NCBI GenBank assembly: GCA_963823555.1
Contig: CAWGMA010000004.1
Span: 32,001-96,000 of the forward strand
Origin: Candidatus Eiseniibacteriota bacterium
GTDB taxonomy: Bacteria > Eisenbacteria > RBG-16-71-46 > CAVPCR01
Length of the DNA: 64,000 nt
Direction of reading: 5' to 3'
A model generated the notes under the pieces. That model was not told the DNA's origin, made no database searches, and worked only from the letters and a program-made list of their open reading frames with translations. A program made the position numbers and the translations under genes. Below are positions 31,519-49,610 of this stretch, in pieces (position 1 is the stretch's first letter; the number at the start of each line of letters is the position of its first letter).

Positions 31519-31984
31519 GGCTGCACCTTCTGCGTTTGAAGGGGGGTGCATCATCCGCAGGAGGTGGGAATCCCACCCCTGCGGCTGGTGCCCCAGGTCT
31601 TCATGGGGTGTCACGCTCCACGTGTCTCGAGGTAGCAAGGACCAGGCCACGACACCTGCATGCGGGGTGCGTTCCCCCAGCGATGAGTTAGTGAGCGATG
31701 GACTCGTCGCTTTGCTCGCGCGGAAGCTCGGCGCCCACTGCCGGCGGAACCTTTCAATCTGCCTGCTCGAGTGCCATGGCCATTGCCGCGGCGTGCAGCG
31801 CGCCCTCAGGTGGGCTCTCTAGGGTTCTCTCGAAGCCGTTGCGCGAGGTCTATCCGCACCCGTATGATCCGGGGGTTCTGGCACAATGAACCGCGTGGCC
31901 GGCCGGCGATGCACCCCCGAATCTGCGGCTGCCCCGGAAGCAAGAGCCACGGCCGGCGGCCGTTTCACTTGGAGGAGGTTTCTC

Positions 31985-32560
31985 ATGTTTCAGCTGCCCG
32001 AATTGCCCTATGCCATGGATGCCCTGGAACCGCATATCTCGCGCGAGACGCTCGAGTACCACTACGGGAAGCACCATGCTGCCTATGTCAACAAGCTGAA
32101 CGAACTCGTCAAGGGAACTCCGAATGAGAAGGCCTCGCTCGAGGACATCGTGAAGAAGGAATCGGGAGGGATCTTCAACAACGCAGCTCAGATCTGGAAT
32201 CACACGTTCTATTGGCACTGTCTCGCGCCGAAGAGTGGAGCGCCGAGCGACAAGCTCCTGGCAGCCTTGAATGCGAACTTCGGCTCACTCGAGGAGTTCA
32301 AGAAGCAGTTCTCGAACGCCGCGGCCACTCTGTTCGGCTCCGGCTGGGCATGGCTGGCCAAGAAGGGGGATGGCAAGCTCGAGATCGTCCAGGAATCGAA
32401 TGCCGGTACGCCGCTCACGCGCGGTTACGCACCGCTGCTCACCTGTGACGTCTGGGAGCACGCCTACTACATCGACTACCGGAATGCGCGCCCGAAGTAC
32501 ATCGAGGCATTCTGGAATCTGGTCAACTGGACATGGGTCGAGAAGCAGTGGCAGGCCTAG
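31985..32560 (+). CDS. sodB: Fe/Mn superoxide dismutase (Fe-type residues)
   Basis: HYGKHH, FNNAAQIWNH, FGSGWAW, DVWEHAYY; GGAGG RBS. Confidence 0.95.
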   Translation: MFQLPELPYAMDALEPHISRETLEYHYGKHHAAYVNKLNELVKGTPNEKASLEDIVKKESGGIFNNAAQIWNHTFYWHCLAPKSGAPSDKLLAALNANFGSLEEFKKQFSNAAATLFGSGWAWLAKKGDGKLEIVQESNAGTPLTRGYAPLLTCDVWEHAYYIDYRNARPKYIEAFWNLVNWTWVEKQWQA

Positions 32561-32614
32561 AGCGAAGCCAGAGTCCCGTCGCTTCTAGGCGGTTCCTGTA
32601 ACTCTGATGGTCGG

Positions 32615-32642
32615 GCCCCGGGAAGCATCAGCTTCCCGGGGC
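32615..32642 (+). terminator. Hairpin downstream of sodB
   Basis: Perfect 12-bp stem GCCCCGGGAAGC/GCTTCCCGGGGC. Confidence 0.6.
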
Positions 32643-32722
32643 TTGGCCTTGTGGCCGGTGGGAGTGGTATGATGACCGATAGGGATGGGCCTTGCCGTCT
32701 CGAAGCAAGGGGAGGGGAAGCC

Positions 32723-33169
32723 ATGTCCGACCGCCAGCCCTACCAGTACGTTCTCGAAGAGCACAAGGAACTTCTCGCCCACCTCGAGCAGATCGAATCG
32801 CTCGTACGCCCTCATCGCGGGGAATCAGCCGCCGCCAGCGGTTCCGCCTCGCTCCGCGATGAGATCGGACTCCTGGCCGAGAGCCTGGCGCGTCACTTCG
32901 CGGGGGAGGAACGGGGATTCCTGGCCGACCTTTCAGCCGAACGGCCGGAGTTCGCCCGCGAACTGGATGCGCTCGGGAAGGAGCACTCGGACCTCCTGGC
33001 CACCGTGACCACGCTCCGCGACCTGGCGCACAGCCTGCCCGACGCCGATCTCGTACACGAGGTTCGCGCCGGACTTCGCGATTTCTTCGCTCGCTTGCGG
33101 GAGCACGAACGCCGGGAGACCGATCTCGTCCAGGAGGCGGCGCTGCGCGATATCGGATTCTCGGCCTGA
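32723..33169 (+). CDS. Hemerythrin-like HHE domain protein
   Basis: EEH, HFAGEE, EH, HERRE. Confidence 0.8.
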   Translation: MSDRQPYQYVLEEHKELLAHLEQIESLVRPHRGESAAASGSASLRDEIGLLAESLARHFAGEERGFLADLSAERPEFARELDALGKEHSDLLATVTTLRDLAHSLPDADLVHEVRAGLRDFFARLREHERRETDLVQEAALRDIGFSA

Positions 33170-33437: not shown

Positions 33438-34097
33438 ATGGACGCAGCATCCGACCGGCGCCCGCCGGACACCACATGGGAGGGGGGAGGAGGTGGCGGT
33501 GAGGGCGCGGAGCTCGTACCGCTCCTACGCTCCAGCCACATCTTTGCCTCCGTCGTTCGCGAGTTTCTCGAGCTCAAGCTCCTGCGCGAAGTAAGTCCCG
33601 CTCCGCTCTCCCTCTCCCAGTTCCATCTTCTCAAGCTCGTTTGCGACAACGGGTCGCACCAGGTCGGGGAAGTCGCCGAGTTCCTCGGCGTCAGCCCTCC
33701 TGCCGCCACCAAGAACATCGACAAGCTCGAAGCTCTCGATCTCGTTCGCCGCAGTCCATCCCGCGGCGACCGGCGGGCCACGATGCTCCATGTCGGTCCC
33801 AAGGGCCGGCGGCTGGTCGATGACTACGAGCAACTCAAGACCGCACGACTGGCTCCCATCCTCGCCGGCTTCCGTCCGGAAGAACTCGGGCAACTCGCGA
33901 CGTTGCTCGAGCGCTTCTCGGTGGCGTTGCTCGAGGCCGAGGATTCGAACGGAGTCTGTCTACGATGTGCCGCCTATGTGGAGAGCGACTGCCCCGTGAG
34001 CCGTGTGCGCGGCTTCTGTCCTTACCAGAAGGCGCGCGGCGGGCGGGTGAGTGAACTGAACCCAGAGGGAGTTGACCGACTCGAGGGGAGTTCTTGA
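33438..34097 (+). CDS. MarR-family regulator with C-terminal four-Cys extension
   Basis: LSLSQFHLL, EVAEFLGVSPPAATKNIDKLE, DRR; CLRC-x7-C-x8-C. Confidence 0.85.
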   Translation: MDAASDRRPPDTTWEGGGGGGEGAELVPLLRSSHIFASVVREFLELKLLREVSPAPLSLSQFHLLKLVCDNGSHQVGEVAEFLGVSPPAATKNIDKLEALDLVRRSPSRGDRRATMLHVGPKGRRLVDDYEQLKTARLAPILAGFRPEELGQLATLLERFSVALLEAEDSNGVCLRCAAYVESDCPVSRVRGFCPYQKARGGRVSELNPEGVDRLEGSS

Positions 34098-34438
34098 TGG
34101 TCCTTTGGCGAAAACCCCTGGATCTCGATCAGGTCAAGATCCCGCGCGGAGAGGTGCGGATCATTGCTGATCGCTGCAAGGGATGCGGATTCTGCGTCGA
34201 GTACTGCCCGAAGGATGTCCTCGTGCTGTCCGAGGAATTCAATCGGAAGGGTTACCACCCGCCACGGGTGGTCAAGAGCGGAGAATGCGTGAACTGCAAT
34301 CTCTGCGAGATGATCTGCCCGGACTTCGCCATCTTCAGCGTTTCCGCCAACGGTCCGGCGCCGGACGCGGGCGAGGCGGATCGTTCGGCGGCCGGGCCGG
34401 CGACTGCGGTGGTGCCGAGCGCGGGTGGAGCGGCCTAG
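34097..34438 (+). CDS. korD: 2-oxoacid:ferredoxin oxidoreductase delta subunit (2x[4Fe-4S])
   Basis: CKGCGFCVEYCP, CVNCNLCEMICPDFAI. Confidence 0.88.
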   Translation: MVLWRKPLDLDQVKIPRGEVRIIADRCKGCGFCVEYCPKDVLVLSEEFNRKGYHPPRVVKSGECVNCNLCEMICPDFAIFSVSANGPAPDAGEADRSAAGPATAVVPSAGGAA

Positions 34439-34470
34439 GCCAGCCTCCGCCCGGCCGAGGAGGATTCGAG

Positions 34471-35628
34471 GTGAAAGCGGATCCATTGGGTGTCCTGACC
34501 GGCGCCCACTATCTGGATGGCGATTTCGCTTGCGGCGAAGGGGCGATGGCTGCCGGGTGCCGCTTCGTCGCCGGCTATCCCATCACGCCGTCAACCGAGG
34601 TCGTCGAACGTATTGCTCGCCGCTTCCCCATGATGGGAGGCCTCTTCATCCAGATGGAGGATGAGCTCGCGAGCATGGCGGCCGTCGTCGGCGCGGCGTG
34701 GACCGGAACCAAATCGATGACCGTGACGAGCGGGCCAGGCTTCAGTCTGATGATGGAGAACATCGGGCTCGCGGCCATGATGGAGACGCCCTGTGTCGTG
34801 GTCAATGTCCAGCGTGCCGGACCTTCCACCGGTCTTCCGACCATGGTCGGCCAGGGCGACATGATGCAGGCGCGCTGGGGATCTCACGGCGATTACGAGA
34901 TCATCGCCTTGTGTCCTCGTTCTCCCCAGGAGGCATTCGATCTCACGATCGAAGCCTTCAACCTGGCGGAGACCTATCGTCTACCGGTTCTGATCATGAT
35001 GGATGAGTGCGTGGGTCACATGACGGAGAAGGTGGTGATCCCCCCCGCGGAAGAGATCGAGATCGTGCCGCGCCGCTTGACCGAGGAGCCACCGGATCGA
35101 TTCCGCCCCTACCGGGTCAACGGGAACATGATCCCCGAGTTCGCGCGGGCCGGTGATGGATTCCGTTTCCATACCACCGGACTTACTCATGACGAACGCG
35201 GCTATCCTGACATGACTGCCGAGTGCCAGGAGAAGAGTGTGCGGCGGCTCATCGACAAGGTGCGCGCCAATGCCGATCGCATCATCCGCGTCGAGGAAGA
35301 AGCGATCGAAGGGGCCGATGTGGTGGTGGTGACCTACGGCATCACCTCCCGCGTCGCTCGCATGGGAATCCAGATGGCGCGCAAGCAGGGAGTGAAGGTC
35401 GGGGCGCTCAGGCTGCTCGTGGTCTGGCCCTTCCCGGAGAAACGGATCCGGGAGCTGGCGGGGAGGGTCAAGGCGTTCGTGGTGCCCGAGATCAACTACG
35501 GACAGATCGTGCTCGAGGTGGAGCGCTGTGCTGCGGGCAAGGCGGCGGCGGTGTCCGTGACGCACGGCGGCGGCGGCGTCCATGATCCGGCCGCGATCTG
35601 CGAGGCCATAGTGAGGGCGGCGAAATGA
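34471..35628 (+). CDS. korA: 2-oxoacid:ferredoxin oxidoreductase alpha subunit
   Basis: AGYPITP, QMEDE, TSGPG, QRAGPSTG. Confidence 0.92.
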   Translation: MKADPLGVLTGAHYLDGDFACGEGAMAAGCRFVAGYPITPSTEVVERIARRFPMMGGLFIQMEDELASMAAVVGAAWTGTKSMTVTSGPGFSLMMENIGLAAMMETPCVVVNVQRAGPSTGLPTMVGQGDMMQARWGSHGDYEIIALCPRSPQEAFDLTIEAFNLAETYRLPVLIMMDECVGHMTEKVVIPPAEEIEIVPRRLTEEPPDRFRPYRVNGNMIPEFARAGDGFRFHTTGLTHDERGYPDMTAECQEKSVRRLIDKVRANADRIIRVEEEAIEGADVVVVTYGITSRVARMGIQMARKQGVKVGALRLLVVWPFPEKRIRELAGRVKAFVVPEINYGQIVLEVERCAAGKAAAVSVTHGGGGVHDPAAICEAIVRAAK

Positions 35629-36518
35629 CGACGGCTGATTCAACGACCGTTCGCGCGGAAGAGCATCCCATTGCGCCATACATCCGCATGGATCGTATGC
35701 CGCACATCTGGTGTCCGACCTGCGGGATCGGGACGGTGGTCAAGTGTTTTGCTTCTGCCCTGGAGCAGACCGGCGTCGACCTCGACAAGGTGGCGGTTGT
35801 CTCCGGGATCGGTTGCACGGGGCGCGTGGCTGGATACATGAAGCTCGACGGCTTCCACACCACCCACGGCCGGGCGATCCCCTTCGCCACCGGGCTCAAG
35901 CTGGCCCGGCCGGAGCTCAAGGTCACCGTCTTCTCCGGAGATGGCGACCTGGTGGGAATCGGCGGCAACCACTTCATCCATGCCGTGAGGCGGAACATGG
36001 ATCTGCTCGTCATCCTGGTCAACAACTTCATCTACGGGATGACAGGCGGGCAGAACGGGCCGACGACGCCGGTCACGGCGCGTTCGTCGACCATGCCTTT
36101 CGGCAACTTCGAACGGTCCTTCAACCTGCCCCATCTGGCGGCGAGCTGCGGGGCCACCTATGTCGCCCGCTGGACCTGTCTCCATGTGCGGCGGTTGACC
36201 AAGGCCTTCGCCGAGGGAATCGATCGCAAGGGGTTCCGGTTCATCGAGGTCATCACCCCGTGCTCGACTCTCTATGCGCGCCTCAACAAGCTCGGCACCG
36301 GCTTCGAGCTCATGAAGTTCTACCACGACAATGTCGAGATCCAGCACGCGGCGGATACGCGGGATGCGGACATTGGCTTCCAGGGAAAGATCCTCTGCGG
36401 GAAGTTCATCGATGAGGAGAGACCGACATTCCTCGAGATGATGCACGAGCACTACCGGAAGGTCCTGGGAGAGAAGTACGTACCGATGCCGCCCGAGGGA
36501 GGAATGCTCCGTGGATAG
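35625..36518 (+). CDS. korB: 2-oxoacid:ferredoxin oxidoreductase beta subunit (TPP-binding)
   Basis: WCPTCG, SGIGC, GDGD..NN, YGMTGGQ. Confidence 0.93.
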   Translation: MTTADSTTVRAEEHPIAPYIRMDRMPHIWCPTCGIGTVVKCFASALEQTGVDLDKVAVVSGIGCTGRVAGYMKLDGFHTTHGRAIPFATGLKLARPELKVTVFSGDGDLVGIGGNHFIHAVRRNMDLLVILVNNFIYGMTGGQNGPTTPVTARSSTMPFGNFERSFNLPHLAASCGATYVARWTCLHVRRLTKAFAEGIDRKGFRFIEVITPCSTLYARLNKLGTGFELMKFYHDNVEIQHAADTRDADIGFQGKILCGKFIDEERPTFLEMMHEHYRKVLGEKYVPMPPEGGMLRG

Positions 36519-37119
36519 GCTCGAGATGCGGATCACAGGGTTCGGCGGCCAGGGGGTCGTGCTCGCCGGCTACATCTTCGGGCGCGCCTGCGCCATCCAC
36601 GCCGACAAGCACGCCACCATGATCCAGAGCTTCGGACCCGAGGCCCGCGGATCGGCTTGCAGTGCCACCCTGGTCGTATCCGACAGTGAGGTGCTTTACC
36701 CCTACGTCCAGCGGCCGGACATCCTGATCGTGATGTCCGGTGAAGGCTATGAGAAATACGGCGCCGAGCTCAAGGATGGAGGCACGCTGATCTGCGAGCG
36801 GGACCTCGTCAAGGCGGAACCGAAGCCGGGGCTCAAGATCTTTGCCGTGCCTTCGACCCGGATCGCGGAGACGCTGGGCAGGCCGATCGTGCAGAACATC
36901 GTCATGCTGGGCTTCGCGGCCGCCGTGATCGCTGCGGTGCCGCAAGAAGCGATGATCACGGCAGTGAAGGGATCGGTCCCGGCGGGGACCGAGGACATCA
37001 ATCTCAAGGCCTTCGCTGCCGGCTGGGAGTACTTCGAAACCGAGTACGGGAGCAAGGGGCAGGCGGCGCCGGCCAGCGAAGCGGTGGGAGCGGCGCCGGC
37101 GGAATCCGGAGCGACCTAG
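36511..37119 (+). CDS. korC: 2-oxoacid:ferredoxin oxidoreductase gamma subunit
   Basis: GFGGQG, SFGPEARG, NIVMLG, NLKAF. Confidence 0.92.
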   Translation: MDRLEMRITGFGGQGVVLAGYIFGRACAIHADKHATMIQSFGPEARGSACSATLVVSDSEVLYPYVQRPDILIVMSGEGYEKYGAELKDGGTLICERDLVKAEPKPGLKIFAVPSTRIAETLGRPIVQNIVMLGFAAAVIAAVPQEAMITAVKGSVPAGTEDINLKAFAAGWEYFETEYGSKGQAAPASEAVGAAPAESGAT

Positions 37120-37152
37120 TTGCGGGAGAGCCGCAAGGTGGAGTGAAAGAGG

Positions 37153-40100
37153 ATGGGCAAGCGACGGCAGCAGCCGGTGGAAACGATCGAGCCCGCGGTG
37201 GTGGAGAGACGGGCGCTGGTGATCGGTGGTGGTATCGCCGGTATCCAGGCAGCGCTGGATCTTGCCAACGCCCGCGTGCGCGTCAGTCTGGTGGAGAAGT
37301 CGCCGTCACTGGGTGGACGCATGGCCCAGCTCGACAAGACCTTTCCCACCATGGACTGCTCGATCTGAATCCTCGGCCCCAAGGCCATGGATGCCGGTCG
37401 GCATCCGCTCATCGACGTCATCACCAATGCCGAGGTCGTCGCCGCTGAGGGCGAGCCCGGTAGCTTCCGCGTGCGCGTTCGGCAGCACCCGCGCTTTGTC
37501 CGCGAGGATCGCTGCGTGGCCTGTGGGCTTTGCGTGGACGCTTGCCCCCAGGTCGGGGGCAATGAGTTCGACGTCGGCCTGAAGGCGCGCAAGGCCATCT
37601 ACCGCCCGTTCCCGCAGTCGGTGCCTGCGGCCTACGTTATCGACCGCGAATCCTGTCTCAACAAGAAGCTCCTGGTCTGCGATCGCTGCGTTCGCTCCTG
37701 CGACGTCGACGCCATCGACTTCGACATGGCGCCGCGGGACATCGATCTCGATGTCGGTTCGATCCTGGTGGCCGTCGGGTTCCAGGAGTTCGATGCCCGG
37801 AAGCTCGGCAACTACGGCTATGGGCGCTTTCCGAATGTGGTCACGAGCCTGGAGCTCGAGCGGATGCTGAACGCCTCCGGAGTCACCCAGGGCCATGTGG
37901 TACGACCCTCCGACGGCAAGACCCCACGGCGGATCGTCTTCATCCAGTGCGTGGGCGCGCGCGGCGAGGGTGGCCGTCCCTATTGCAGCCGCTTCTGCTG
38001 CATGAATGCAGTGAAGGACTCGATGCTCATCCGCCAGCACGATCCGGAGGTGGAGGAGATCACGATCCTCTACACCGACCTCCGGGCGTTCGGGAAGGGC
38101 TTCGATGACTTCCTCCAGCGCTCGATCGATGAAGAGAGCGCTCGCTACATCCGCGGCCGCCCGTCCAAGGTCGAGCATGTTCCGGAAGGCGATCAACTCG
38201 CGGTCTTCGTCGAGGACACACTGGGCCACGAGCTCAAACGGCTCGAGTCCGATCTCGTCGTGCTCTCCGTCGCGGCCGCTCCCAATGATGGCGCCATCCA
38301 TCTCGCCCGCATCCTCGGCATCGAGACCGACGCCTACGGTTTCATCGCGCGGCGGGATCCCGCCATCTCGGCGGTCGAGACCACCCGTCGCGGCGTCTTC
38401 GTCTGCGGCAGCGCGGTCGGGCCGCAGGTGATTCCGGACTGCGTGGCGCAAGCCTCGGCGGCCGCCTCGCGGGCCGGGCTGTTCTTGACCGGCCATCGTG
38501 TCGAGGAGCAGGAGTCGAAGGTCCAACCTCTGGATCTCTCCGGTCCACCGCGCGTCGGCGTCCTCGTATGTCACTGCGGCATCAACATCGCCGGCCTCCT
38601 CGACGTCGAGGAGCTCGCACGCCACGCCGCGGCCCTTCCCGATGTGGTGGTGGCTCGGACCCAGCTCTTCGCCTGCTCGGCCACCGGCCAGGATGAGCTG
38701 GTCGAGCTCGTCCGCGAGCACGGGCTGAACCGCATCGTGGTCGCGGCGTGCACGCCGCGCACCCATGAACCCGTCTTTCGCGAGACCTGCCTCAGGATCG
38801 GCTTCAATCCCTACCTCTTCGAGATGGTGAACATCCGCGATCAGTGTTCGTGGGTCCACGCGAAGCACCCGGCCGCGGCGCAGCAGAAGGCACGTGCCCT
38901 GATCGGGATGGGGGTGGCGCGGGCCCGGCACCTCGAGCCGCTCACGACCGGGCGCGCGCCGATGACGCGGGCCGCCCTGGTGATCGGGGGCGGTATCGCC
39001 GGCATCCAGGCGGCCACGGACCTGGCCGCCCAGGGTTTTCCCACCGTGCTCGTCGAGAAGTCGAGCCGGCTGGGCGGGCGCCTGGCCGAGCCCCATCTCA
39101 AGCATCTGTATCCCAGCCTCAGGCCGGCGGCCGAGGTGCTCGCCCAGAAGCAGAAGCGCCTCGAGGAGAGCGGAGCCCGCGTCCTGCTCGAGACCGAGGT
39201 CGAGGACATCAGTGGATTCGTGGGCAGCTTCACGGCGAAGCTGCGCGGCCGGACGACCGAGGAGCTCAAGGTCGGGGCCATCATCCTCGCTTTCGGGGCC
39301 GACCTCTACGATCCGGAAGGCGAGTTCGGTCGCGGGCGCTTGCCGAACGTGATCACGAGCGAGGAGCTCGAGCGGGCCTTCTTCTCGGGCGACGGCGAGC
39401 TGACCCTCGGCGGCCGGCGGCCGCAGCACGCGAGCTTCATTCTTTGCGTGGGCTCGCGCGAGGCGCACGGGTTCACCGGCTGCTCGCGCTACTGCTGCCC
39501 GACCGCGATCAAGCAGGCCATGCAGCTCACCCGCCAGGGGATCGATACGACCGTTTTCTACCGTGACATCCGCACCATCTCCACCGGAGCGGAGGAGATG
39601 TACCGCGAGGCGCGCGGTATGGGTGTGCTCTTCGTGCGCATCCCTCCCGGTGAGAAACCCGAGGTGGTGGGGAAGGAGCGGGTCGAGGCGGTGCGCTGCT
39701 TCGACGATCTCCTCGGCCGGCGCCTCGAGGTGCCGAGCGACCTCGTGGTCCTGAGCGTCGGCATGCGGCCGCGCCGGGAGGATACGGCCCGGTTCCACGA
39801 GATGCTCAAGGCGAGCCTCGGCCTCGACGGGTTCTTCCTCGAGCGGCACCCCGAGCTGGGACCGGTGGAAACCCAGGTCGAAGGGATCCTCCTCGCCGGC
39901 ACCGTGCAGGGTCCCAAGGACATCGTCGACACGGTGGCGCAGGCCTCGGCGGCCGCGGCCAAGGCGGCCGTATTCCTGGCCTACGACCAGGTCACGCTCG
40001 ATCCGGCGGTGGCGGTGGTGGACGAGGTCCGCTGCCGCGCCTGCGGCACCTGCGTCGACATCTGCCAGTTCCAGGCGCCGGAGCTCGTCGAACTGGCGCC

Positions 40101-40257
40101 GGGGATCACGACCGCGCGCATCAACGCCTCCCTGTGCAAGGGGTGCGGAACCTGCGCCAGCTGGTGTCCTTCCGGAGCGATCACGGCCAAGCACTTCACC
40201 GATCGGCAGTTGAACGCCATGATCGATGCCTTCTTCGCCGCGGAGGTGGAGTCATGA
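37153..40257 (+). CDS. hdrA: Large tandem HdrA-family flavoprotein (about 1034 aa), probable selenoprotein (UGA codon 72 at 37366-37368)
   Basis: ORFs 37153 and 37387 are in frame across the TGA in [15 protein letters not shown]; two GGGIAG FAD motifs, YCSRFCC, ferredoxin motifs. Confidence 0.9.
37389..37406 (+). promoter_or_regulatory. Bacterial SECIS-like hairpin 1
   Basis: GGATGCC-GGTC-GGCATCC; 27 nt between the UGA and the G-starting apical loop. Confidence 0.8.
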
Positions 40258-40766
40258 CGGCGACCGCTACATCCTTCACTCCCGACATCGTCGTGTTCGC
40301 GTGCAACTGGTGTTCCTATGCCGGAGCCGACACGGCCGGCGTGTCACGCATGCAGCACGAGCCGCACTTCCGGATGATCCGGGTCATGTGCTCCGGGCGT
40401 ATCCAGCCGGCCTTCGTCCTGCGCGCCTTCGAGCGCGGAGCCGACGGTGTGATCGTCTCCGGCTGCCATTTCGGCGACTGTCACTACGTCTTCGGCAACC
40501 ATCGGGCCGTCGAGCAGTTCGAGAAGACGATGGCGATCGTGAAGCTCCTGGGCATCGATCCGGGTCGCCTGCGGCTCGAGTGGATCAGCGCGGCTGAGGG
40601 CGCGCGGTTTGCGCAGGTCGTGAACGAGTTCATCGCCCAGGTGCGGGCACTCGGGCCGAGTCCGCTCCGGCGCCGGAGGCCGGCCGGCACGGAGTCGGGA
40701 TCGGGAGATCAGGTGGCGGTGGCGCACGCGGCGGCCGGGGCGCCGGGGGTGGGATGCAATGGTTGA
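40254..40766 (+). CDS. mvhD: MvhD/FlxD-like [2Fe-2S] subunit
   Basis: [34 protein letters not shown]. Confidence 0.92.
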   Translation: MTATATSFTPDIVVFACNWCSYAGADTAGVSRMQHEPHFRMIRVMCSGRIQPAFVLRAFERGADGVIVSGCHFGDCHYVFGNHRAVEQFEKTMAIVKLLGIDPGRLRLEWISAAEGARFAQVVNEFIAQVRALGPSPLRRRRPAGTESGSGDQVAVAHAAAGAPGVGCNG

Positions 40767-41904
40767 GCTCAAGGACATCACGCGGCGGGCTCGCACCTGG
40801 GCCTGCTATGACTGCGGCAAGTGCACCGCCACCTGCCCGCTGGCGCGGGTCGGCGGCGGGCTGAGCCCCCGCCGCTCGGTGCTGGCCGCGAACCTGGGCG
40901 ACCGCTCGGCGCTCCTCGTCGATGGCAGTCTCCGTGCCTGCCTCACCTGCAGCCAGTGCGATCAGCGGTGCCCGGTCGAGGTCGACTACACGAGCATGGT
41001 GCGAGAGCTCCGTGAGTTCACTCATCACGGACCGAGCGAGCCCGACTGCCCGCATGGGGGAGCCCTGCAATCGGTCATGCGCATGATGGCCCGAGGGGGT
41101 ACCACACAGAATCGACTCGAGTGGCTGGGCGGCGATCTGGCCACCGAGCCGGCCCAGGGCGAGGTCTTCTACTGGACCGGGTGCGGCGTCTACTACGACG
41201 CGTTCTTCAAGGACCTGGGAGTCGAGGCGGTTTCCGGCCTCCGCGCCGCGGTCCGGCTCATGAACCGGCTCGGCGTCAAGCCGGTGGTGTCCGCGGAAGA
41301 GCGTTGCTGTGGTCACGATCTTCTGTGGAACGGCGATCGAGCGAGCTTCGAGCTCCTGGCCCGGCACAACACGGCGCTCGTGGCCGCAAGCGGCGCCCAG
41401 TGGCTCGTGACCTCCTGCGCGGAGTGTCTGCGCACCTGGAAGGTCGACTATGCGCCGTTCCTGAGCCGCCCCCTCAAGGTCCTGCATATCACCGAATTCG
41501 TGGCCGAGCATCTCCCCGAGCTCAAGCTCAAGCCCGACGGCGAGAAGCGGGTCACCTTCCAGGATCCCTGCCGGATGGGCCGCCACCTCGGGCTCTACGA
41601 GCCGCCGCGCCGCATTCTCCGCGAGCTGCCCGGGGTCGAGTTCAAGGAGATGCGGCGGGCCGGAGCGGCGGCCGTTTGCTGTGCGGGCGGGACCTGGTCC
41701 AACTGCGACCGGTACGCCAAGCAGGTCCAGGTCGAGCGCCTGCGCGAGGCGCGTTCGACCGGCGCTCAAGTGCTGGTGACCGCATGTCCGAAGTGCCAGA
41801 TCCACTTCCGGTGTGCGATGCGAGATCCGAAGCTCGGAGCGGAAATCGAGATCGAAGTGCGAGATGTCGCCGAGCTCGTGGCCGAGAGGCTCGAGCCGGC
41901 TTGA
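40759..41904 (+). CDS. HdrD-like Fe-S oxidoreductase (2x[4Fe-4S] plus two CCG domains)
   Basis: CYDCGKCTATCP, CLTCSQCDQRCP, RCCG, QDPC, CCAG, TACPKC. Confidence 0.85.
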   Translation: MVELKDITRRARTWACYDCGKCTATCPLARVGGGLSPRRSVLAANLGDRSALLVDGSLRACLTCSQCDQRCPVEVDYTSMVRELREFTHHGPSEPDCPHGGALQSVMRMMARGGTTQNRLEWLGGDLATEPAQGEVFYWTGCGVYYDAFFKDLGVEAVSGLRAAVRLMNRLGVKPVVSAEERCCGHDLLWNGDRASFELLARHNTALVAASGAQWLVTSCAECLRTWKVDYAPFLSRPLKVLHITEFVAEHLPELKLKPDGEKRVTFQDPCRMGRHLGLYEPPRRILRELPGVEFKEMRRAGAAAVCCAGGTWSNCDRYAKQVQVERLREARSTGAQVLVTACPKCQIHFRCAMRDPKLGAEIEIEVRDVAELVAERLEPA

Positions 41905-41932
41905 TCGATAGACCGAGAATGGAGAGGTTCTG

Positions 41933-44387
41933 ATGATCTCCAAAGCGACGAACGACGAGCCACGCATCGGGGTCTTCGTCTGCGACTGTGGCCTCAACAT
42001 CGCAGGCGCGGTGGACTGCGCGGCGGTCAGCGAGTACGCGAAGGATCTTCCCGACGTGACTTGCGTGGTCCGCAACAAGTACACCTGCGCCGACCCGGGG
42101 CAGAACGAGATCAAGGCGGCGATCCGCGAGCACCGGCTCAACCGGGTGGTGGTCGCCTCCTGCACGCCCCGGCAGCACGAGCCGACTTTCAGGCAGTGCG
42201 TGTACGAGGCCGGCCTCAACCCCTACCTCCTCGAGATGGCGAACCTACGGGAGCACTGCTCCTGGGTCCATGCCGGGGATCGGGAGGGGGCGACGCGCAA
42301 GGCGATGGACCTGGTGGCGAGCGCCGTGGCGCGCGCCCGCTTCCTCGAGCCGCAGGAGGAGATGACGGTTCCGGTCACCGAGACCGTGCTGGTCATCGGC
42401 GGCGGCGTGGCCGGGATCGAGGCGGCGCTCGAGCTGGCCGAGGCCGGGCACCGGGCGATTCTGGTGGAAAAGCAGCCGTCCATCGGTGGGATCATGGCTC
42501 AGCTCGACAAGACCTATCCCACGATGGACTGCTCTATATGAATCCTCGGGCCTAAGGCCATCGATGCCGGTCGGCATCGGAACATCGAGCTCCTCACCTA
42601 CAGCGAAGTCGAAGAGGTCTCCGGCTACATCGGGAACTTCTCGGTCAAGATCCGCAAGAAGGCGCGCTATGTGGACACCGCGCTCTGCAACGCCTGCGGC
42701 GAGTGCGCCAAGGTGTGTCCGGTGGCGAAGCCGGACGAATATCAGACCGGTCTCTCCTCGCGCCGGGCGATCTACATTCCCTTCCCGCAGGCTGTGCCGT
42801 GCTCGTACATCTTGAACATGGACGATTGCCTGGGCAACAACCCCATCGCCTGCGGCAAGTGCCTCGAGGTGTGCGACAAGAAGGCCATCAACTACGACGA
42901 TCGCGATGAGATCATCACCCGCGAGGTGGGGGCGGTCATCGTCGCAATCGGGCTCAGCGTCTACGATCCCACGGATCTCGACGAGTACGGGTACACGCGG
43001 TTCGACAATGTCATCACCTCGATGGAGTTCGAGCGCTTGATCTGTGCCGGTGGGCCGACCCTCGGCGAGTTCGTGCGTCCGAGTGACCAGGAGCGGCCGA
43101 AGCGAATCGGGTTCATCCAGTGCGTCGGATCGCGCAATCCGCGGATCGGACGTCCCTACTGCTCGAACATCTGTTGCATGAACACGATCAAGGACACGCT
43201 TCTCCTCGCGGACCACTATCCGGACACCTCGAGCTTCGTCTTCTATCAGGATATCCGCGCCTTCGGCAAGTCGTTCGAGGACATGTTCCAGCGGTCCAAG
43301 GAGGAGGGTACCCGCTACATTCGCGGCCTCCCCGGTGACATCGAGGAGGATCCTGGGACCAAGAACCTGATCATCACGGTCGAGAACACGACCTCGGGTC
43401 GCCTCGAGACGTCACGAGCTCGACATGGTGGTGCTGTCCGTGGGGGTCGGTCCGCCGGACGATCTGGCCAAGATCTCGCGCCTCTTGACGCTGTCCAAGA
43501 CCTCCGACGGTTTCCTCATGGAATCGCATCCCAAGCTGAAGCCGGTGGACGCGCCGACTCGCGGGGTGTACTTCGCAGGGTTCTGCGAGGCGCCGAAGGA
43601 CATCAAGGACTCGGTCTGCCAGGCGGGGGCGGCTGCCTCCCGGGCGGGCGCGCTGCTCAATCAGCGCCAGATCAAGATCGAGGCGATCACGAGCCGCGTG
43701 GTGGAGAACGCCTGCATGAAGTGCGGGCTCTGCGCCCAGGTCTGTCCCTACGGTGCCATTCAATGGCACAAGGGCGAGGTGGCGCATGTGATCGAGGCGG
43801 CCTGCGCCGGATGCGGAGCCTGTGGCGCGACGTGCAGCTACGGAGCGATCACCATGCGCCACTTCCGGGACGAGCAGCTCCTGGCGCAGGTGCATGCCGT
43901 CCTCGCCGACCGTCCCGAGGACAAGGTGTTCGCCTTCGCCTGCAATTGGTGCTCCTACGCCGGGGGCGACATGGCGGGAATCTCGCGCTTCCAGTATCCG
44001 ACCACCAACCGGGTCGTCCGCACCATGTGCTCGGCGCGCGTGTCGGAGGAGATGGTGCTCGAGGCCTTCCGCCACGGAGCGCCCGTGGTGCTGGTGTCGG
44101 GGTGTCATTACGCCGACTGCCACTACATCAACGCCAATCGCCAGACCGTGAAGCGCGTGCAGCGGCTATGGGATCAGCTGGAGAAGGCGGGCGTACGTCC
44201 GGAACGGCTGCAGCTCGAGTGGATCAGCGCGGCCGAGGGCCAGAAGTTCGCCCGCGTGATGCGCGATCTCGAGGAGTTGCGGAAGACCGTGACCGCCGAG
44301 GAGATCGCCCATGCCCGGGAGGCGCTCCGGCCCAAACCGAAGAAGGGTGCCGCCAAGAAGGTGGAGGTCGAGGCGGCTGCCACGTAG
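41933..44387 (+). CDS. hdrA: HdrA-MvhD fusion, probable selenoprotein (UGA codon 203 at 42539-42541); one frameshift near 43410
   Basis: [24 protein letters not shown] in frame with ORF 42671, YCSNICC, C-terminal [15 protein letters not shown]. Confidence 0.88.
42562..42579 (+). promoter_or_regulatory. Bacterial SECIS-like hairpin 2
   Basis: CGATGCC-GGTC-GGCATCG; same spacing from UGA as hairpin 1. Confidence 0.8.
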
Positions 44388-44462
44388 ACGTTGTTGACTG
44401 GCCTCGGCCGAGGGCGGAGCGCAGGGGAGAACCGGACGAGAACGACGGCCACGCTGGTGACG

Positions 44463-44603
44463 ATGCGCTGCATGATGTGCGGGCACGAGTACGAGGAGCT
44501 GGTGGAGGAGGGGGAGGACAAGGAGCGCTCGTGCCCGAAGTGCCGCTCGAACTCGATTCGTCTCTTGAAGAAGAGACGGCCGGGGAGCGGGGAGTCACAC
44601 TGA
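44463..44603 (+). CDS. Small zinc-ribbon protein (FmdB-like; start uncertain)
   Basis: CMMCGHEYE..CPKCRS; stop overlaps next ATG. Confidence 0.65.
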   Translation: MRCMMCGHEYEELVEEGEDKERSCPKCRSNSIRLLKKRRPGSGESH

Positions 44604-46044
44604 TGATCCGGACCCCAAGCAAGGAGGACGAGGTCGTCCGCGTCGACTTCGAATTCCGGCGCGAGCTCGCGCGGAAGGTCGAGGGCAACCTGGCGGCTAC
44701 TGCTACCAGTGCGGCGCCTGCGTCGGCGATTGTCCTGCCGCGCGGTACCTGGGCGCGTTCAATCCGCGGGAGATCATGCTCAAGGTGCTCTACGGCCTGG
44801 GGGAGGAGCTCCTCGAGCCCGATTCGCTGCTCTGGGCCTGTGCCAATTGCTACAACTGCCACGAGCGCTGCCCGCAACAGGTGAAGCCGGTCGAGGTGAT
44901 CATCTCGCTCAAGAACATGCTGGCCGACCGCGGGCTGGCTCCCGACCCGGTCGAGAAGATCATCCGCACCTTCGAGACCACGGGCCGCACCACGCCGATG
45001 AGCGCGGCCGTGGATCGCCAGCGGGCCGACTTCGGGCTCGAACCTCTCAAGCCGGTGCCGGTCGAGGAGATCCAGCGGTTGCTCGTCGCCGAGGACCAGG
45101 CGGCGGCCCGGTCCCCCGGTGCGACCCATGCCACACCGACGCCGCAGCCCGAGCGGGACCCGGCGCTTCGCCTTCTTTCCCGGCTGTCTGATCCCGGCCC
45201 GCCATCCAGGGATGGAGGTGGCCATCCGGGAGTCGCTCTGGCCCGGCTCGGGATCGAGATCGTCGATCTCGAGGGCACGTCGTGCTGTCCGGATCCGATC
45301 TACTTCAAGTCGAAGGACAAGATGAGCTGGCTGGCCGTGGCCGCGCGCAACCTTTGCCTGGCCGAGGACCTCGGGGTCGACATCTTCACCAACTGCTCGG
45401 GATGCACGGCGACGCTGTCCGAGTGTTGCCATCTCCTCGAGGACGAGACGTTACGCACGAAGGTCAACCAGCGCCTGGCCCGCATCGGCCGCGAGTACCT
45501 GGGGACCGGACGCGTCCGGCACGTCGTGACGCTGCTCCGGGATGTGGTGGGCTACGAGGCCATACGAGCATCCGTCGTGCGCCCGCTCACCGGACTCAGG
45601 GTCGCCATCCACTACGGATGCCATCTGCTCAAGCCGAGCCGGATCATGCAGGTGGATGATCCCGATGATCCCACGGTTCTCGAGAACCTGGTCACGGCGC
45701 TGGGGGCGACCCCGGTGCGGCATCGCAACTGGTATCTCTGTTGCGGCAAGGCTTGCCAGGCCGAGGAGATTCCGAAGAACATGATGCACGACCTTCTCGG
45801 CGCCGTGAGCGACGAGGAGGCGGATCTCCTCTGCCTCATCTGCCCGACCTGCTTCGGCCAGTTCGACCATGGACAGGTGCGGGTGGCGCAGGAGTTCGGC
45901 GCCGATTTCCACACGCCCCCCATCTACTACTTCCAGCTGCTCGCCCTGGCCCAGGGCCTGCCCTACGAGCGGCTGGGGTTCGAGCGCCAGCGGCTGAAGC
46001 CGGAAGCCATCAAGCGTTTCGCCGCGGACGTCAGCGCGGGATAG
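44603..46044 (+). CDS. HdrC-HdrB-like fusion with frameshifts at about 44695, 45160 and 45240
   Basis: CYQCGACVGDCP, CANCYNCHERCP, FFPGC, SCCP, NCSGC, HYGCH, LCCG, CPTC, PIYYFQL. Confidence 0.8.
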
Positions 46045-49027
46045 GCGTCCCGATGAGCTCCTCGACGAGCTGAGCGGCCTCCTGGAGTCGCCGCTGCACG
46101 TCGGCGAAGAGGTAGCTCCCTGCTCCTGGCCCGTAGCGGTCCTCGTAGCCCAGGATGCGGGCGGGAGCGGTGAGCTGGGACTCCTCGATCTCGTCGCTTG
46201 CGGTCACCGCGACCCGATAGGCGGAGCGCACGGTGATCAGGAAGTCATAGGCCATCCGCAGGCGTTCGTAGAGATCGGTGCGCGGCGGATCGGCGCGCAA
46301 GAGGGCGTCGAAGATCTCACCGCTGGTGGCATCCCAGATCCCGAGCCGGGCCTCGGCGATGGCAAGGCAGAGATCGATGTCCCGGAACCCACCGGGGTGC
46401 TCCTTCAGATGAATCGTCGCGGGCGGCATGGGGCGGAAGAAGCGCCGCCGCTCCAGGATCTCGCGCACCACGCGGGTCGTGAAGGCCTCCGCCTTGTCGA
46501 AGATCTGCGGAGCCAGCACGCGCTGCCGGATCTCCGCCTCGAGCCGCCGGGAACCGACGATGATGCGTGAGCCGAGGAGCTGGCAGCGGTCGACGAACAG
46601 CTCATCATGGTCCTCGCCGAGCAGAGCCGCCAGGTCGTCCATGGCGACGGCGAAGCGCCCGGCCCACTCCCCGAGTCGATACTGAGCGATCACGCCGCGG
46701 CGCGCGATCTGCCGGTTCATCAGCCACGACCACGCGCTCGGCGAACAGCCGCGTCGCCGGGGGTTGGCGAGTCGACGACCACGAGCAGGTCGTAGTCCTC
46801 GTCGTAGGGGCGGCCGCGGGCGTTGCCTCCCGAGAGGAGGATCCCGATGCGGTCGCGCTCCAGGGTCCAGCCATCCGGGTCGCCGCTCGACCTCGCGGAA
46901 GCAGAAGTCGAAGAGCCGGCCCAGGTAGGTGCGCGTGAGCTCGGCGAAGGCGACGCGCGTCAGGCGGTCCGACTGGCCGCGGAGTGTGCCCATCGCGATG
47001 CGCAGGAACTCGATGTCGTAGTAGTCGCCGAGCAGCCCCTTCTGCGTGTCGGGGCTTGGATGCCGCTCGCTCGCGGCGAGCCGGCCCAGGGCGAGCGTAC
47101 GCAGGTGGGGTCGTCCGAGATGGCCTGAACCGTGGCCGGATGACGCTCGGTGACGCGGGCGAGCACGCGGCTGATGTAGTGGCTGCTCTCGCGGTGCAGC
47201 GGCGATCGAGCGCGAGAAAGCGGTCGCGGGCCGCCGCGACCTCGGGATTGCCGATCGGGACGTCGATGGCGCCCTCGAGCTGCGCGAGCCGGTCGCGGGT
47301 CGAGGCGAGAAGAGGAAACGATTGGTGAGCGCCGGATAGATAGCGGAAGACGCGTGACAGCGCCCGCACCGCCTCCGGGAAGTCCGCGAGCTGCGGACAG
47401 ATACGCATCGGCGATCTCGGCGGCAGGATCGACGCCTCGCGCCGCTCGCCGGCGCTTGGCAGCGACAGCGAGAGCAGGATGGTCAGAAAGGTGTAGGGAG
47501 CATCGCGGCCCCATTCGGCGTAGAGCTGGGCCAGCTCTGGCGCGCTCCGGGCGGCAAGCGAGCGTAGCTCTTGACGAAGGCCTCGAGCAGGCGCGCCACC
47601 CGGGGGCCGAGAACGCGGCGAGGAGATCGTCGTAGAAGCGGACCCCGCGAAACGCCCGGGTCGCCGGCGGCCAGGATCCTCGGCCAGCTTCGGTCGCCAG
47701 GTCCTCCGGTGGCGTGCCGCGCGCCACAGCGGAGAAGCGGCTGATCTGGGTCAGGTGCCGGGCCACGCTCGTCCATGAGCGGCCCGGCGGCCGGCGTGGG
47801 CCTCCTCGACCGCCTCGTGGTAGTGGACGAGCAGGTGCTCGACGGCGTGAACCGGACCCCAGTCCCGATAGCCGAGCACGGCCGCGACATCGAGCCAGGT
47901 TCTCGCGCGCGCTCTCCCCCTCGACGCCGATCTCTTCCTCCTGCGTGACCAGCAGCTGGGCCACCTGGCGGAAGGTCTCCAGGAACGATCCGGCTGGTTT
48001 CCGAGCTGGCGAAGTGGGGCTCGAGCACCGGAGTGCACGCATCAGCTTGAGATCAGCGAGGAGGCCTGCGCGTCGCGTCCCCCGCAGGCAGTAGATGGTC
48101 TTGAAGGCGGCGGCCAGGCCGAGAATGAGGCGCAGCGCATCGTCCTTGGGGTTCAGCCGGTCCGGTGCGGGCGGGAGGATCAGAAGCCCGCGCGTCTCAC
48201 CGAGGAGTCCCCTGAGGTAGATCTCGTGGCGATAGTTGTCGCCACCGGGCGGAAGCAGTACTCGGCTGTCACTTCCGCCGCAACCGCTCGCAGCACCTCA
48301 GGATCCCCAGCCACCAGCTCGGCGCCGCAGGAGCTCGGTCACGACGACGATAGCCGAGCCGTCCCGCTCCGCAGAGCCTGATTCAGCTCCTCGATGCTCA
48401 TGGAGAAGCCCGTCGGTATCGGCCTCGGTGGCGACGTAGTTGTCGAGCGGGCTGGCGTACCGCAGGCACTGGCCGGCGAGCCGGGCGAAGGCCTGGTCGA
48501 GCTGCCGCCGGTCCCGGCAGCCGCCGTCGATGAAGGCGACGTCGATGTCGTCCTGGTGGCCGCGGGTGCCCACGGAGAGGATGGCGAAGGGGCCGGTCCC
48601 GGGGGGCAGGACCACGCGCAGGACCTGCTCGATGTACGTGGAGACGAGAAGCGCGAACTCCTCCTCGATCCGCTCCAGGAAGGCCGCGTAGGAGACCAGG
48701 CGGTCGCCGCTCCTCGCCGCGAGGTCCACGGCCAGCTCGCTCCAGGGCCCGGGCGTTCTGATGCAGGAACTGGATCGACGTAGAACGTGCCGAGGAGGAC
48801 CAGCTTTTCTTCCGGACCCCGGCCGGCGGCGGCGACGCGCTCGAAGTCCTCGGCGGGAGCGGCGGAGGTGCGGTCGAGGGTGGACGTGGGAGAGAGCTTC
48901 CGCCGCCTCGAGGCGGCTGAGCAGGAGTTCCCCGTGCTGCTCCACCGCTCGCAGGTACTTGCGGGCGGGATTGCCGAACAGCTGGCACCCGGGTGATGAG
49001 GCGCTCGTAGGCCGGGTGCATGGTCAT
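46031..49027 (-). CDS. GlnE-like protein with two nucleotidyltransferase modules; heavily frameshifted
   Basis: Fragments GTRGHQDDIDV, LNPKDDALR, GGNARGRPYDEDYDLL, HLKEHPGGFRDID, AYDFL..R. Confidence 0.6.
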
Positions 49028-49047
49028 CGGCGGGGGCCTCGAATCGG

Positions 49048-49610
49048 TCACCCGGCCGGCTGGTCCGCGTACTCACCGGCCAGCTCGAGCCCGAGCCGGT
49101 AGGCCTTGCGGTTGAGTTCCTCGGTCCCGCGCGGGACGCGGGCCAGGATCGCCTGCTCGGCGGCCTCTTCGGTCACCGCCTTCGACAGTCGCACGATCAC
49201 GCCCAGGGCGATGATGTTGGCGACGATCGGTTTGGCGAATTTCTCGCCGGCGAGGCCGAGCGAAGGGGAGCGCCGACCACGCGATGATCGCCGTCCGGGA
49301 GGCGAGTCACCGCCCCCGAGTCGACGACGAGCCAGCCACGGGGCCTCAGATCCTTGAGATAGCGATCGAGTGCTTCCTGGGTGAGCGCGAGCAGGAGGTC
49401 GACGTTCTCCGCCTTGGGATAGTCGATTTCCTCCTCGGAGACGATCACGTCGGAGCGACTGGCGCCCCCGCGCGCTTCCGGACCGTAGGATTGGCTCTGG
49501 GTGGCATTGCGGTCGTCGTAGATGGCGGCCGCCTCGGCGAGGATCTTGCCGGCGAGAACGAGGCCTTGTCCGCCCTCACCACTCAAACGAAGCTCGAACC
49601 GAAAGGGCAT
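49048..49610 (-). CDS. Second 2-oxoacid:acceptor oxidoreductase gamma subunit (frameshift near 49265)
   Basis: SGEGGQG, QSYGPEARGG, ANIIALG, ELNRKAY. Confidence 0.88.

Follow-up and report, generated by a model that had tools for sequence, protein, structure and literature searches.

The window analysed here is a stretch of 64,000 nucleotides (nt) from Candidatus Eiseniibacteriota bacterium (assembly GCA_963823555.1, contig CAWGMA010000004.1, positions 32,001 to 96,000 of the forward strand), and coordinates are counted from its first letter. Its plus strand contains two hdrA genes, copy 1 (37153..40257) and copy 2 (41933..44387), each crossed by an in-frame UGA that is followed by a short hairpin within the coding sequence. 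Comparison with related genes indicates that both hairpins are very probably SECIS elements of the bacterial type (selenocysteine insertion sequences), which would recruit SelB and the selenocysteine (Sec) tRNA so that the UGA, 27 nt before the loop, is read as Sec at the position equivalent to Cys197, a ligand of an iron-sulfur (FeS) cluster. The core of the hairpin is common to UGA-containing hdrA genes across phyla and is absent from the Cys forms examined.

Copy 1, as delimited by Pfam and by translation with TGA read as Sec from a putative start codon, encodes 1034 amino acids with Sec at residue 72; in copy 2, which is fused to MvhD, Sec falls on residue 203. The UGA of copy 1 (37366..37368, plus strand), the probable Sec codon, is found in the motif DCSI-U-ILGPK, at the same motif position as the UGA of copy 2 (42539..42541, plus strand), whose residue (55 of the query) aligns with chain residue 197 (Cys197) of the solved HdrA 5odc_A. 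Homology to HdrA is clear (E 1e-122 to 5odc_A); chain A of this structure has Cys at 197 and the segment KMVDVAKHPNV, while here a Sec codon is aligned to that Cys. In PMC9012536, Cys197 is described as reaching across the subunit interface to ligate the N-terminal FeS cluster of its HdrA partner.

Hairpin 1 (37389..37406, plus strand) is composed of a 6-base-pair (bp) core at 37390-37405, a basal G-C pair and a GGUC loop at 37396-37399, while hairpin 2 (42562..42579, plus strand) has its core at 42563-42578, a basal C-G pair and the same loop at 42569-42572; both loops are at +27. The original prediction, made from this DNA alone, had described these paired hairpins, and both 18-mers are indeed present at the positions given there, each forming a 7-bp stem with a GGTC loop that begins 27 nt past the TGA. 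The codon differences between the copies are also exact (ATG/ATC and CCG/CGG; GGC/GGG and CCC/CCT), with copy 2 reading HRNI. A U-G pair reported beneath both stems exists in the sequence, but it does not appear in the predicted hairpin folds and is not conserved, being U-G at 19 and U-C at 65 of 117 Sec sites among the matches listed.

The constraints applied were those of the consensus model behind bSECISearch, as set out in section 5 of PMC13188914. Both hairpins share with that model the location after the UGA and inside the coding region, a loop of 4 nt (3-9 allowed) opening with GG (the model asks for G among the first two loop bases, in most cases GG or GU), a stem of 7 bp (4-16 allowed), a spacing of 27 nt between UGA and loop (16-37 allowed) and an energy of -7.5 kcal/mol or lower. 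They differ from it in that the 16-nt core is almost invariant across phyla within one protein family. In isolation, hairpin 1 has a folding energy of -11.5 kcal/mol (z -3.4) and hairpin 2 one of -10.6 kcal/mol (z -3.3); within contexts of 38-60 nt, z is only -1.1 to -1.5.

Sec and Cys forms of the protein show a clean contrast. Sites in hdrA were collected from 61 relatives by protein search, from 206 genomes of the phylum by pattern and from a GTDB scan (at least 121 loci), in which the peptide D[AV]GRH was fixed while its codons and the Sec/Cys codon were left free. After filters for flanks, upstream motif and duplicates, the GTDB loci gave 109 rows for the Sec/Cys comparison and 113 for the Leu/Thr and register comparisons treated below. 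Of 166 distinct sites, among the matches listed (as for the next two comparisons), 123 are UGA forms and 43 Cys forms; the 6-bp core pairs in 121 of the former and in none of the latter. Even when the peptide is the same, Gly is encoded by GGT in 122/122 Sec rows versus 3/19 Cys rows, and His by CAT in 122/122 versus 7/19. In the alignment of Sec forms (88 rows) 98.1% of cells pair, a value reached by none of 500 shuffles, and controls slid along the sequence give 22-57%; in that of Cys forms (21 rows) only 61.9% of cells pair, and 357 of 500 shuffles are as high. On the tree, Cys forms placed beside Sec forms (L155, L135, L177, L192) keep the peptide KM[MT]DVGRH and have lost the stem. The possibility that the same hairpin is conserved in Cys orthologues, raised beforehand as fatal to the SECIS interpretation, was looked for and no such case appeared among the 43 Cys forms listed. 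The remark that synonymous sites inside the stem are identical was also borne out: third-position identity between the paralogues is 1.0 and 0.93 in the core, versus 0.35-0.68 in the flanks.

These comparisons bear on another explanation, in which the DAGRH peptide and GC-rich codon use would produce the hairpin incidentally, or the gene would be broken and the UGA a genuine stop. Copy 2 is indeed frameshifted in the assembly, and the z-scores in context are modest. However, none of the 19 Cys forms with D[AV]GRH among the matches listed has a paired core, and, given the peptide and the codon usage of the genome, a copy would have a paired 6-bp core by chance with a probability of about 0.03, and the exact 16-mer with one of about 0.003. 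Moreover, TGA is in frame in more than 120 relatives and the frameshift looks like an assembly error. This explanation is already largely refuted, and it is exceedingly improbable.

Covariation was examined on a FastTree phylogeny of 175 rows and 86 columns, with the hairpin codons removed. At the fifth pair of the core, C-G is found in 71 rows, U-A in 36, U-G in 10 and C-A in none (n=117, among the matches listed); the change on the 5' side replaces Ala with Val, while that on the 3' side is silent. On the tree, 26 changes occur on each side, and seven independent pairs gave 4.9 in the same direction and none in the opposite one. This Ala/Val pair is the best evidence that RNA pairing constrains both codon and residue choice: selection would tie Ala to CGG, while Val may take either CGA or CGG. 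Covariation among UGA-containing orthologues, whose absence would have spoken against the SECIS interpretation, is thus present. The broader claim that RNA structure constrains the peptide stands for the Ala/Val pair and for the second register described below, while the basal swap from which it had been drawn is weak evidence.

At that basal pair, the exchange of G-C for C-G between the two copies had been taken as a sign that RNA is selected over protein. Among the matches listed (n=117), the pair is G-C in 102 rows, C-G in 4 and mismatched in 11, which indicates a pair that is preferred but dispensable. A single compensatory event forced by the RNA structure, at a cost to the protein, would be in keeping with several of the data. 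The strong preference for G on the 5' side, evident from the 102 G-C rows, points to some selection on the pair, and all four Arg rows of the 117-row sample have C opposite. In a metagenome scan that forced a base other than C on the 3' side (56 distinct rows), 35 rows are still paired, 27 of them as C-G. Third bases also follow the partner, both for Leu (CTG in 19/19 opposite C, CTC in 6/6 opposite G) and for Thr (ACG in 13/18 opposite C, ACC in 3/3 opposite G). This synonymous test seemed decisive for the basal pair at first, but its Arg rows are one clade and there is a counter-example, a copy-2 orthologue with Leu-CTC opposite Pro. Furthermore, the copy-2 orthologues of 14 genomes comprise four C-G pairs, all in this phylum, one G-C and nine mismatches; the remaining 21 of the 56 forced rows are mismatched, 11 of them as G-G, and G-G rows, with Arg opposite G, occur in four separate tree groups. 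All C-G rows on the tree belong to one clade of 36 rows that also holds mismatched members, and the test on independent pairs gives p = 1. No protein cost emerges either, since the Pro position is occupied by another residue in 13 of the 43 Cys forms listed, in one case by Arg; this Pro varies freely in Cys forms. The tree left out 5 of 180 Sec rows that were too short, among them L259 (KMI..HR), a C-G row in which the swap could have arisen a second time. A forced event of this kind is therefore unlikely, and the argument built on it is weak. The most likely course would be that in the copy-2 lineage Met first changed to Ile or Leu, with the mismatch tolerated, and that later, in a subset, Pro changed to Arg, restoring the pair at a residue that the protein does not guard, perhaps under mild selection.

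Several observations weigh against the SECIS interpretation or limit its support. When copy 1 is folded with 30 nt of upstream sequence, another structure is favoured and the probability of the hairpin is 0.02; the core pairs of copy 2 have a probability of 1.0 in the same setting, and in one 38-nt fold of copy 2 an alternative structure is also favoured. A ribosome at the UGA would presumably cover the upstream part that competes in the copy 1 fold. The generic SECIS model is satisfied by 91 of 150 random TGAs of this genome (61%), so that the model has little power alone. An A-C mismatch is found within the core in copy 1 of genome G437 and in L143. The GTDB sample, with its at least 121 loci, was itself selected by the D[AV]GRH peptide; as for covariation, repeated change on both sides is limited to a single core pair, and the sign test on independent pairs has a median p of 0.06. 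Among the Sec-hdrA genes of Asgard archaea, which have elements in the untranslated region, none of 17 loci (of 24, after the motif filter) satisfies the bacterial model, a result in favour of the SECIS interpretation, but this control is AT-rich, which in itself lowers hairpin stability. Finally, an Rfam scan of 37200-42800 with E up to 10 yielded no SECIS match, only two chance-level small RNA matches; RF01989 and RF01990 describe the same kind of element but do not match here. Many bacterial SECIS elements are reported to be missed by Rfam in the accessible part of bioRxiv 10.64898/2026.09.15.751765.

The missing Rfam match over 37200-42800 also suits another explanation, according to which the hairpin is a functional RNA but not a SelB site; it might, for instance, pause the ribosome or act in anti-termination, and SelB would bind at another place. 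In the same direction, the stem begins 20 nt past the UGA, versus 11 nt in Escherichia coli (PMC11431864, accessible part). On the other hand, spacing, loop G and stem all fit the published consensus, the Sec rows show no further conserved base-paired element downstream, and the hairpins found in a shifted register (+22) keep the same GGU loop; this explanation is accordingly very improbable. The SECIS of E. coli fdhF has a bulged U; the hairpins of the window differ from it in the 20-nt distance and in being without a bulge. The likeness is in size: according to PMC11431864, what SelB recognises in the minimal fdhF element is an upper stem-loop some 17 nt long, and the stem-loop here is short too.

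The genes for the Sec machinery are in place. The genome encodes SelA, SelB and SelD, all over the cut-offs, and tRNA-SeC, and its selD gene itself contains a TGA. Together with the site, the Sec-specific conservation and the covariation, these genes support the reading of the hairpins as SECIS elements. In the mechanism that would follow, the free mRNA folds the 6-bp stem when the ribosome is at the UGA, and SelB would bind the GGU loop, by analogy with the established bacterial pathway (PMC13188914, in the part available). SelB carrying GTP and Sec-tRNA, with the loop just outside the ribosome, would then deliver Sec at the UGA, where Sec-tRNA would outcompete RF2, and Sec would ligate the N-terminal FeS cluster of the partner HdrA unit. 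Selection would be strong on the 6-bp core and on the GGU loop, fixing codons otherwise free, and soft on the basal seventh pair.

Other likely selenoprotein genes of the genome, besides selD, encode peroxiredoxin-like and thioredoxin-like proteins, Rdx and a methyltransferase; they carry unrelated stems, with loops at 16-35 nt that mostly open with G. When 13 UGA candidates were compared with Pfam, two (L072, L073) appeared to be genuine stops between genes, no family was found for three, and the match to GrdB ended just before the UGA. Further likely selenoproteins of G000 are located at C1:1972848+, C1:418494+, C2:139022+ and C1:433880-, three of which were scanned and have no Pfam family; the G000 candidates include two DPCGU paralogues (one scanned) with a common GGA-loop hairpin, one UxxC protein and one C-terminal GGAU candidate without a hairpin fitting the model. 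ARAGORN also found in G000, in the region C3:771000-852213, a second tRNA-Trp(CCA), unusually long at 95 nt (C3:812843-812937).

The hairpin had been proposed as a compact, lineage-specific SECIS seed, and this does not agree with its distribution. Of the 175 tree rows, 74 have a phylum label, and in these the core already spans 13 named phyla; Thermodesulfobacteriota, Chloroflexota, Planctomycetota, Myxococcota, Calditrichota, Acidobacteriota and others are among the phyla that have it. Conversely, a scan of this 4.6-Mb genome found the 16-mer core at the two hdrA sites only, the other UGA genes carrying the unrelated hairpins described above, and its use as a genome-wide seed was dismissed. 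Occurring in many phyla, and behind no other UGA of this genome, the core marks the HdrA family and not a lineage. No relative was found in the viral contigs searched, and the sequencing runs listed included no RNA data set containing the sequence, a negative that is uninformative on expression.

A second register was found when the peptide was left free. Among 28 Sec-hdrA loci of Desulfobacterota, 20 are of this second type, four are of the type seen in the window, two are variants with a five-base loop and two are unclassified. In the second register an AGGU loop is located at +22, inside the peptide LVEVGR (L310-L339, L042, L353); its variants include a silent change from C-G to U-A, while MGEVAQ (L328/L329) and LVEVDR (L311) keep or improve pairing, as judged by eye. 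In Chloroflexota TGA is present in 3 of 19 matches, two of the window type and one in the second register. On a tree of 329 columns and 101 rows (FastTree, unrooted, with long-branch warnings) each hairpin class shows at least four changes on starred branches, so that hairpin class does not follow the protein tree. The second-register pattern also occurs in two Cys rows, and one of them, L043 (G042:C14, a selA-positive genome), has the full +22 stem, which may be a remnant SECIS; remnants of this kind in Cys revertants are reported for other families in the accessible parts of PMC1794560 and PMC1976440. From these data a portable Sec-hdrA recoding cassette can be tentatively suggested, although the odds are somewhat against it: an AU-rich UGA context, a rare AUA codon and a GGU-loop hairpin in register +27 or +22 would have been repeatedly rewritten or moved between deep paralogues, with residues changing to keep the pairs. 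If this were true, the cassette would be a natural library of SECIS variants for the SelB proteins of many phyla, and would show the ways in which an in-frame SECIS arises, changes register and disappears.

The AUA codon of this context directly precedes the UGA of copy 2 (42536..42538, plus strand) and accounts for 1.3% of Ile codons in this genome. Among the matches listed, Ile before the UGA is encoded by AUA in 73 of 94 GC-rich Sec rows, versus 39 of 679 other Ile codons, and Ile after the UGA by AUU or AUA in 72 of 110 rows. AUA before the UGA occurs in several phyla, but in none of 8 GC-rich rows of Thermodesulfobacteriota, and 6 of 8 Cys rows with Ile at this position also have AUA. The codon lowers the predicted pairing of the UGA from 0.43 to 0.32. 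A role of AUA-UGA as a re-initiation site (AUGA) was considered and rejected, since in 12 of 26 AUA rows the -1 frame is already closed after 5 codons, leaving no long product.

The two paralogues form deep, separate clades, and the identity of their cores could also derive from gene conversion, in which a short tract from UGA to SECIS is copied between tandem genes without separate selection on each. Codon +6 speaks for this: it is Ala (GCC) in both paralogues of 11 genomes and Met in both paralogues of 6, and it is the sole site of 93 that tracks the genome group (mutual information 0.94) and not the copy (0.0), a difference that needs three base changes. In addition, around the UGA the G000 copies agree at 26 of 29 residues, just after it at 9 of 27, and the hairpin classes are scattered across deep HdrA clades. 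However, synonymous identity near the UGA shows no excess within genomes over that across genomes (permutation p 0.06-0.96), which indicates that no conversion was recent, and the same core is present in paralogues of the Met type and in genomes that yielded only a single such site. An old conversion could account for the shared Ala, but not for the persistence of the core while the flanks are saturated. Copying as the source of the shared core is thus quite unlikely; the sharing of codon +6 alone could be explained by an old conversion of the UGA tract or by parallel change. Recent conversion was not detected; one upstream window of the Met group gave p 0.0015, but it is far from the UGA and may reflect genome-wide codon bias. 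The Met-to-Ala change itself lies at 37384-37386 and 42557-42559, and is also seen in G070, G072 and G431-G438. The Ala codon creates a predicted accessory hairpin at +7 to +18, of 4 bp in each copy (37375..37386 and 42549..42559, plus strand); in copy 1 it is located between UGA and SECIS and spans the Gly-Pro-Lys-Ala codons. GCC is used in 44 of 45 such rows versus 176 of 339 other Ala codons.

Both genes are part of a cluster (33438-46044) with the order marR, oxoacid:ferredoxin oxidoreductase, hdrA, mvhD, hdrD-like, hdrA-mvhD and hdrC/B, without hydrogenase genes. It opens with marR and four 2-oxoacid:ferredoxin oxidoreductase genes (33438..37119); between the hdrA copies there are an mvhD/FlpD gene of the Cys form (40254..40766, PF02662, E 2e-51) and a gene for an HdrD/GlpC-like CCG-domain FeS protein (40759..41904, PF02754 and Fer4), and downstream lies an open frame with HdrC-like and HdrB-like parts (44776..46044), which matches TIGR03288 and TIGR03290 under their cut-offs and was probably joined by a frameshift in the assembly; all these genes are on the plus strand. 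As judged from its translation, copy 1 is a fused double HdrA, whose first half has the Sec197-equivalent and lacks the N-terminal FeS domain; in the second half this domain is present and the Cys197 motif absent. The same complementary pattern, in which one part lacks Cys197 and the other the N-terminal domain, is described for the heterodimeric HdrA of anaerobic methanotrophic archaea in the accessible parts of PMC9012536; compared with HdrA3/4 of those archaea, the order of the halves is reversed here. Against the NCBIfam model HdrA2 (NF040770, cut-off 1100 bits) copy 1 scores 1049, and copy 2 gives two pieces of 724 and 390. In copy 2 one extra base is present near 43408-43409; it is missing in five orthologues, and a short-read contig over 43316-43467 shows 0 mismatches and 1 gap versus the assembly, so that an assembly error is most likely. 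The short-read contigs compared belong mostly to other organisms, and none spans either hairpin cleanly. Apparent frameshifts at 43408 and 44300-49600 (hdrA copy 2, hdrC/B and a garbled minus-strand gene) fit long-read assembly errors, the first alone having been checked. The paired hdrA layout is seen again in at least 17 genomes of several phyla. Directly upstream of this anaerobic cluster, 31886-33169 contains a superoxide dismutase-like open reading frame, as read from its translation, and a gene with a hemerythrin domain.

The signal is real, but it is largely familiar. Sec-HdrA, tandem hdrA genes and remnant SECIS elements are already in print. Sec-HdrA is known from Syntrophobacter, Syntrophus, Olavius symbionts and clostridia, with SECIS elements checked by program, and its genes are tandem or fused as here, beside frhD/mvhD and glpC (PMC1794560, PMC1976440). 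Differently from those cases, the Cys form is found here for both MvhD and the CCG protein, and the cluster is preceded by a 2-oxoacid:ferredoxin oxidoreductase. The accessible parts of the same two papers describe no HdrA SECIS sequence, covariation or second register. A literature search likewise found no HdrA-specific SECIS consensus, covariation, second register or AUA context, although the 2005 bSECISearch paper, BSepDB and supplements may hold these sequences.

These findings leave the established mechanism by which Sec is inserted unchanged. The model commonly used to predict bacterial SECIS elements is lax; this family provides an element defined at the sequence level, a clean contrast between Sec and Cys forms and a covarying pair, which is enough for a covariance model and for annotating correctly those hdrA genes that would otherwise be truncated at the UGA. 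An in-frame SECIS is noted in the available part of PMC11431864 as a constraint on protein sequence in engineering; in this dual-coded hairpin the hard parts are the core and the GGU loop and the soft part is the basal pair, and the family offers a defined set of natural variants for testing what non-enteric SelB proteins read.

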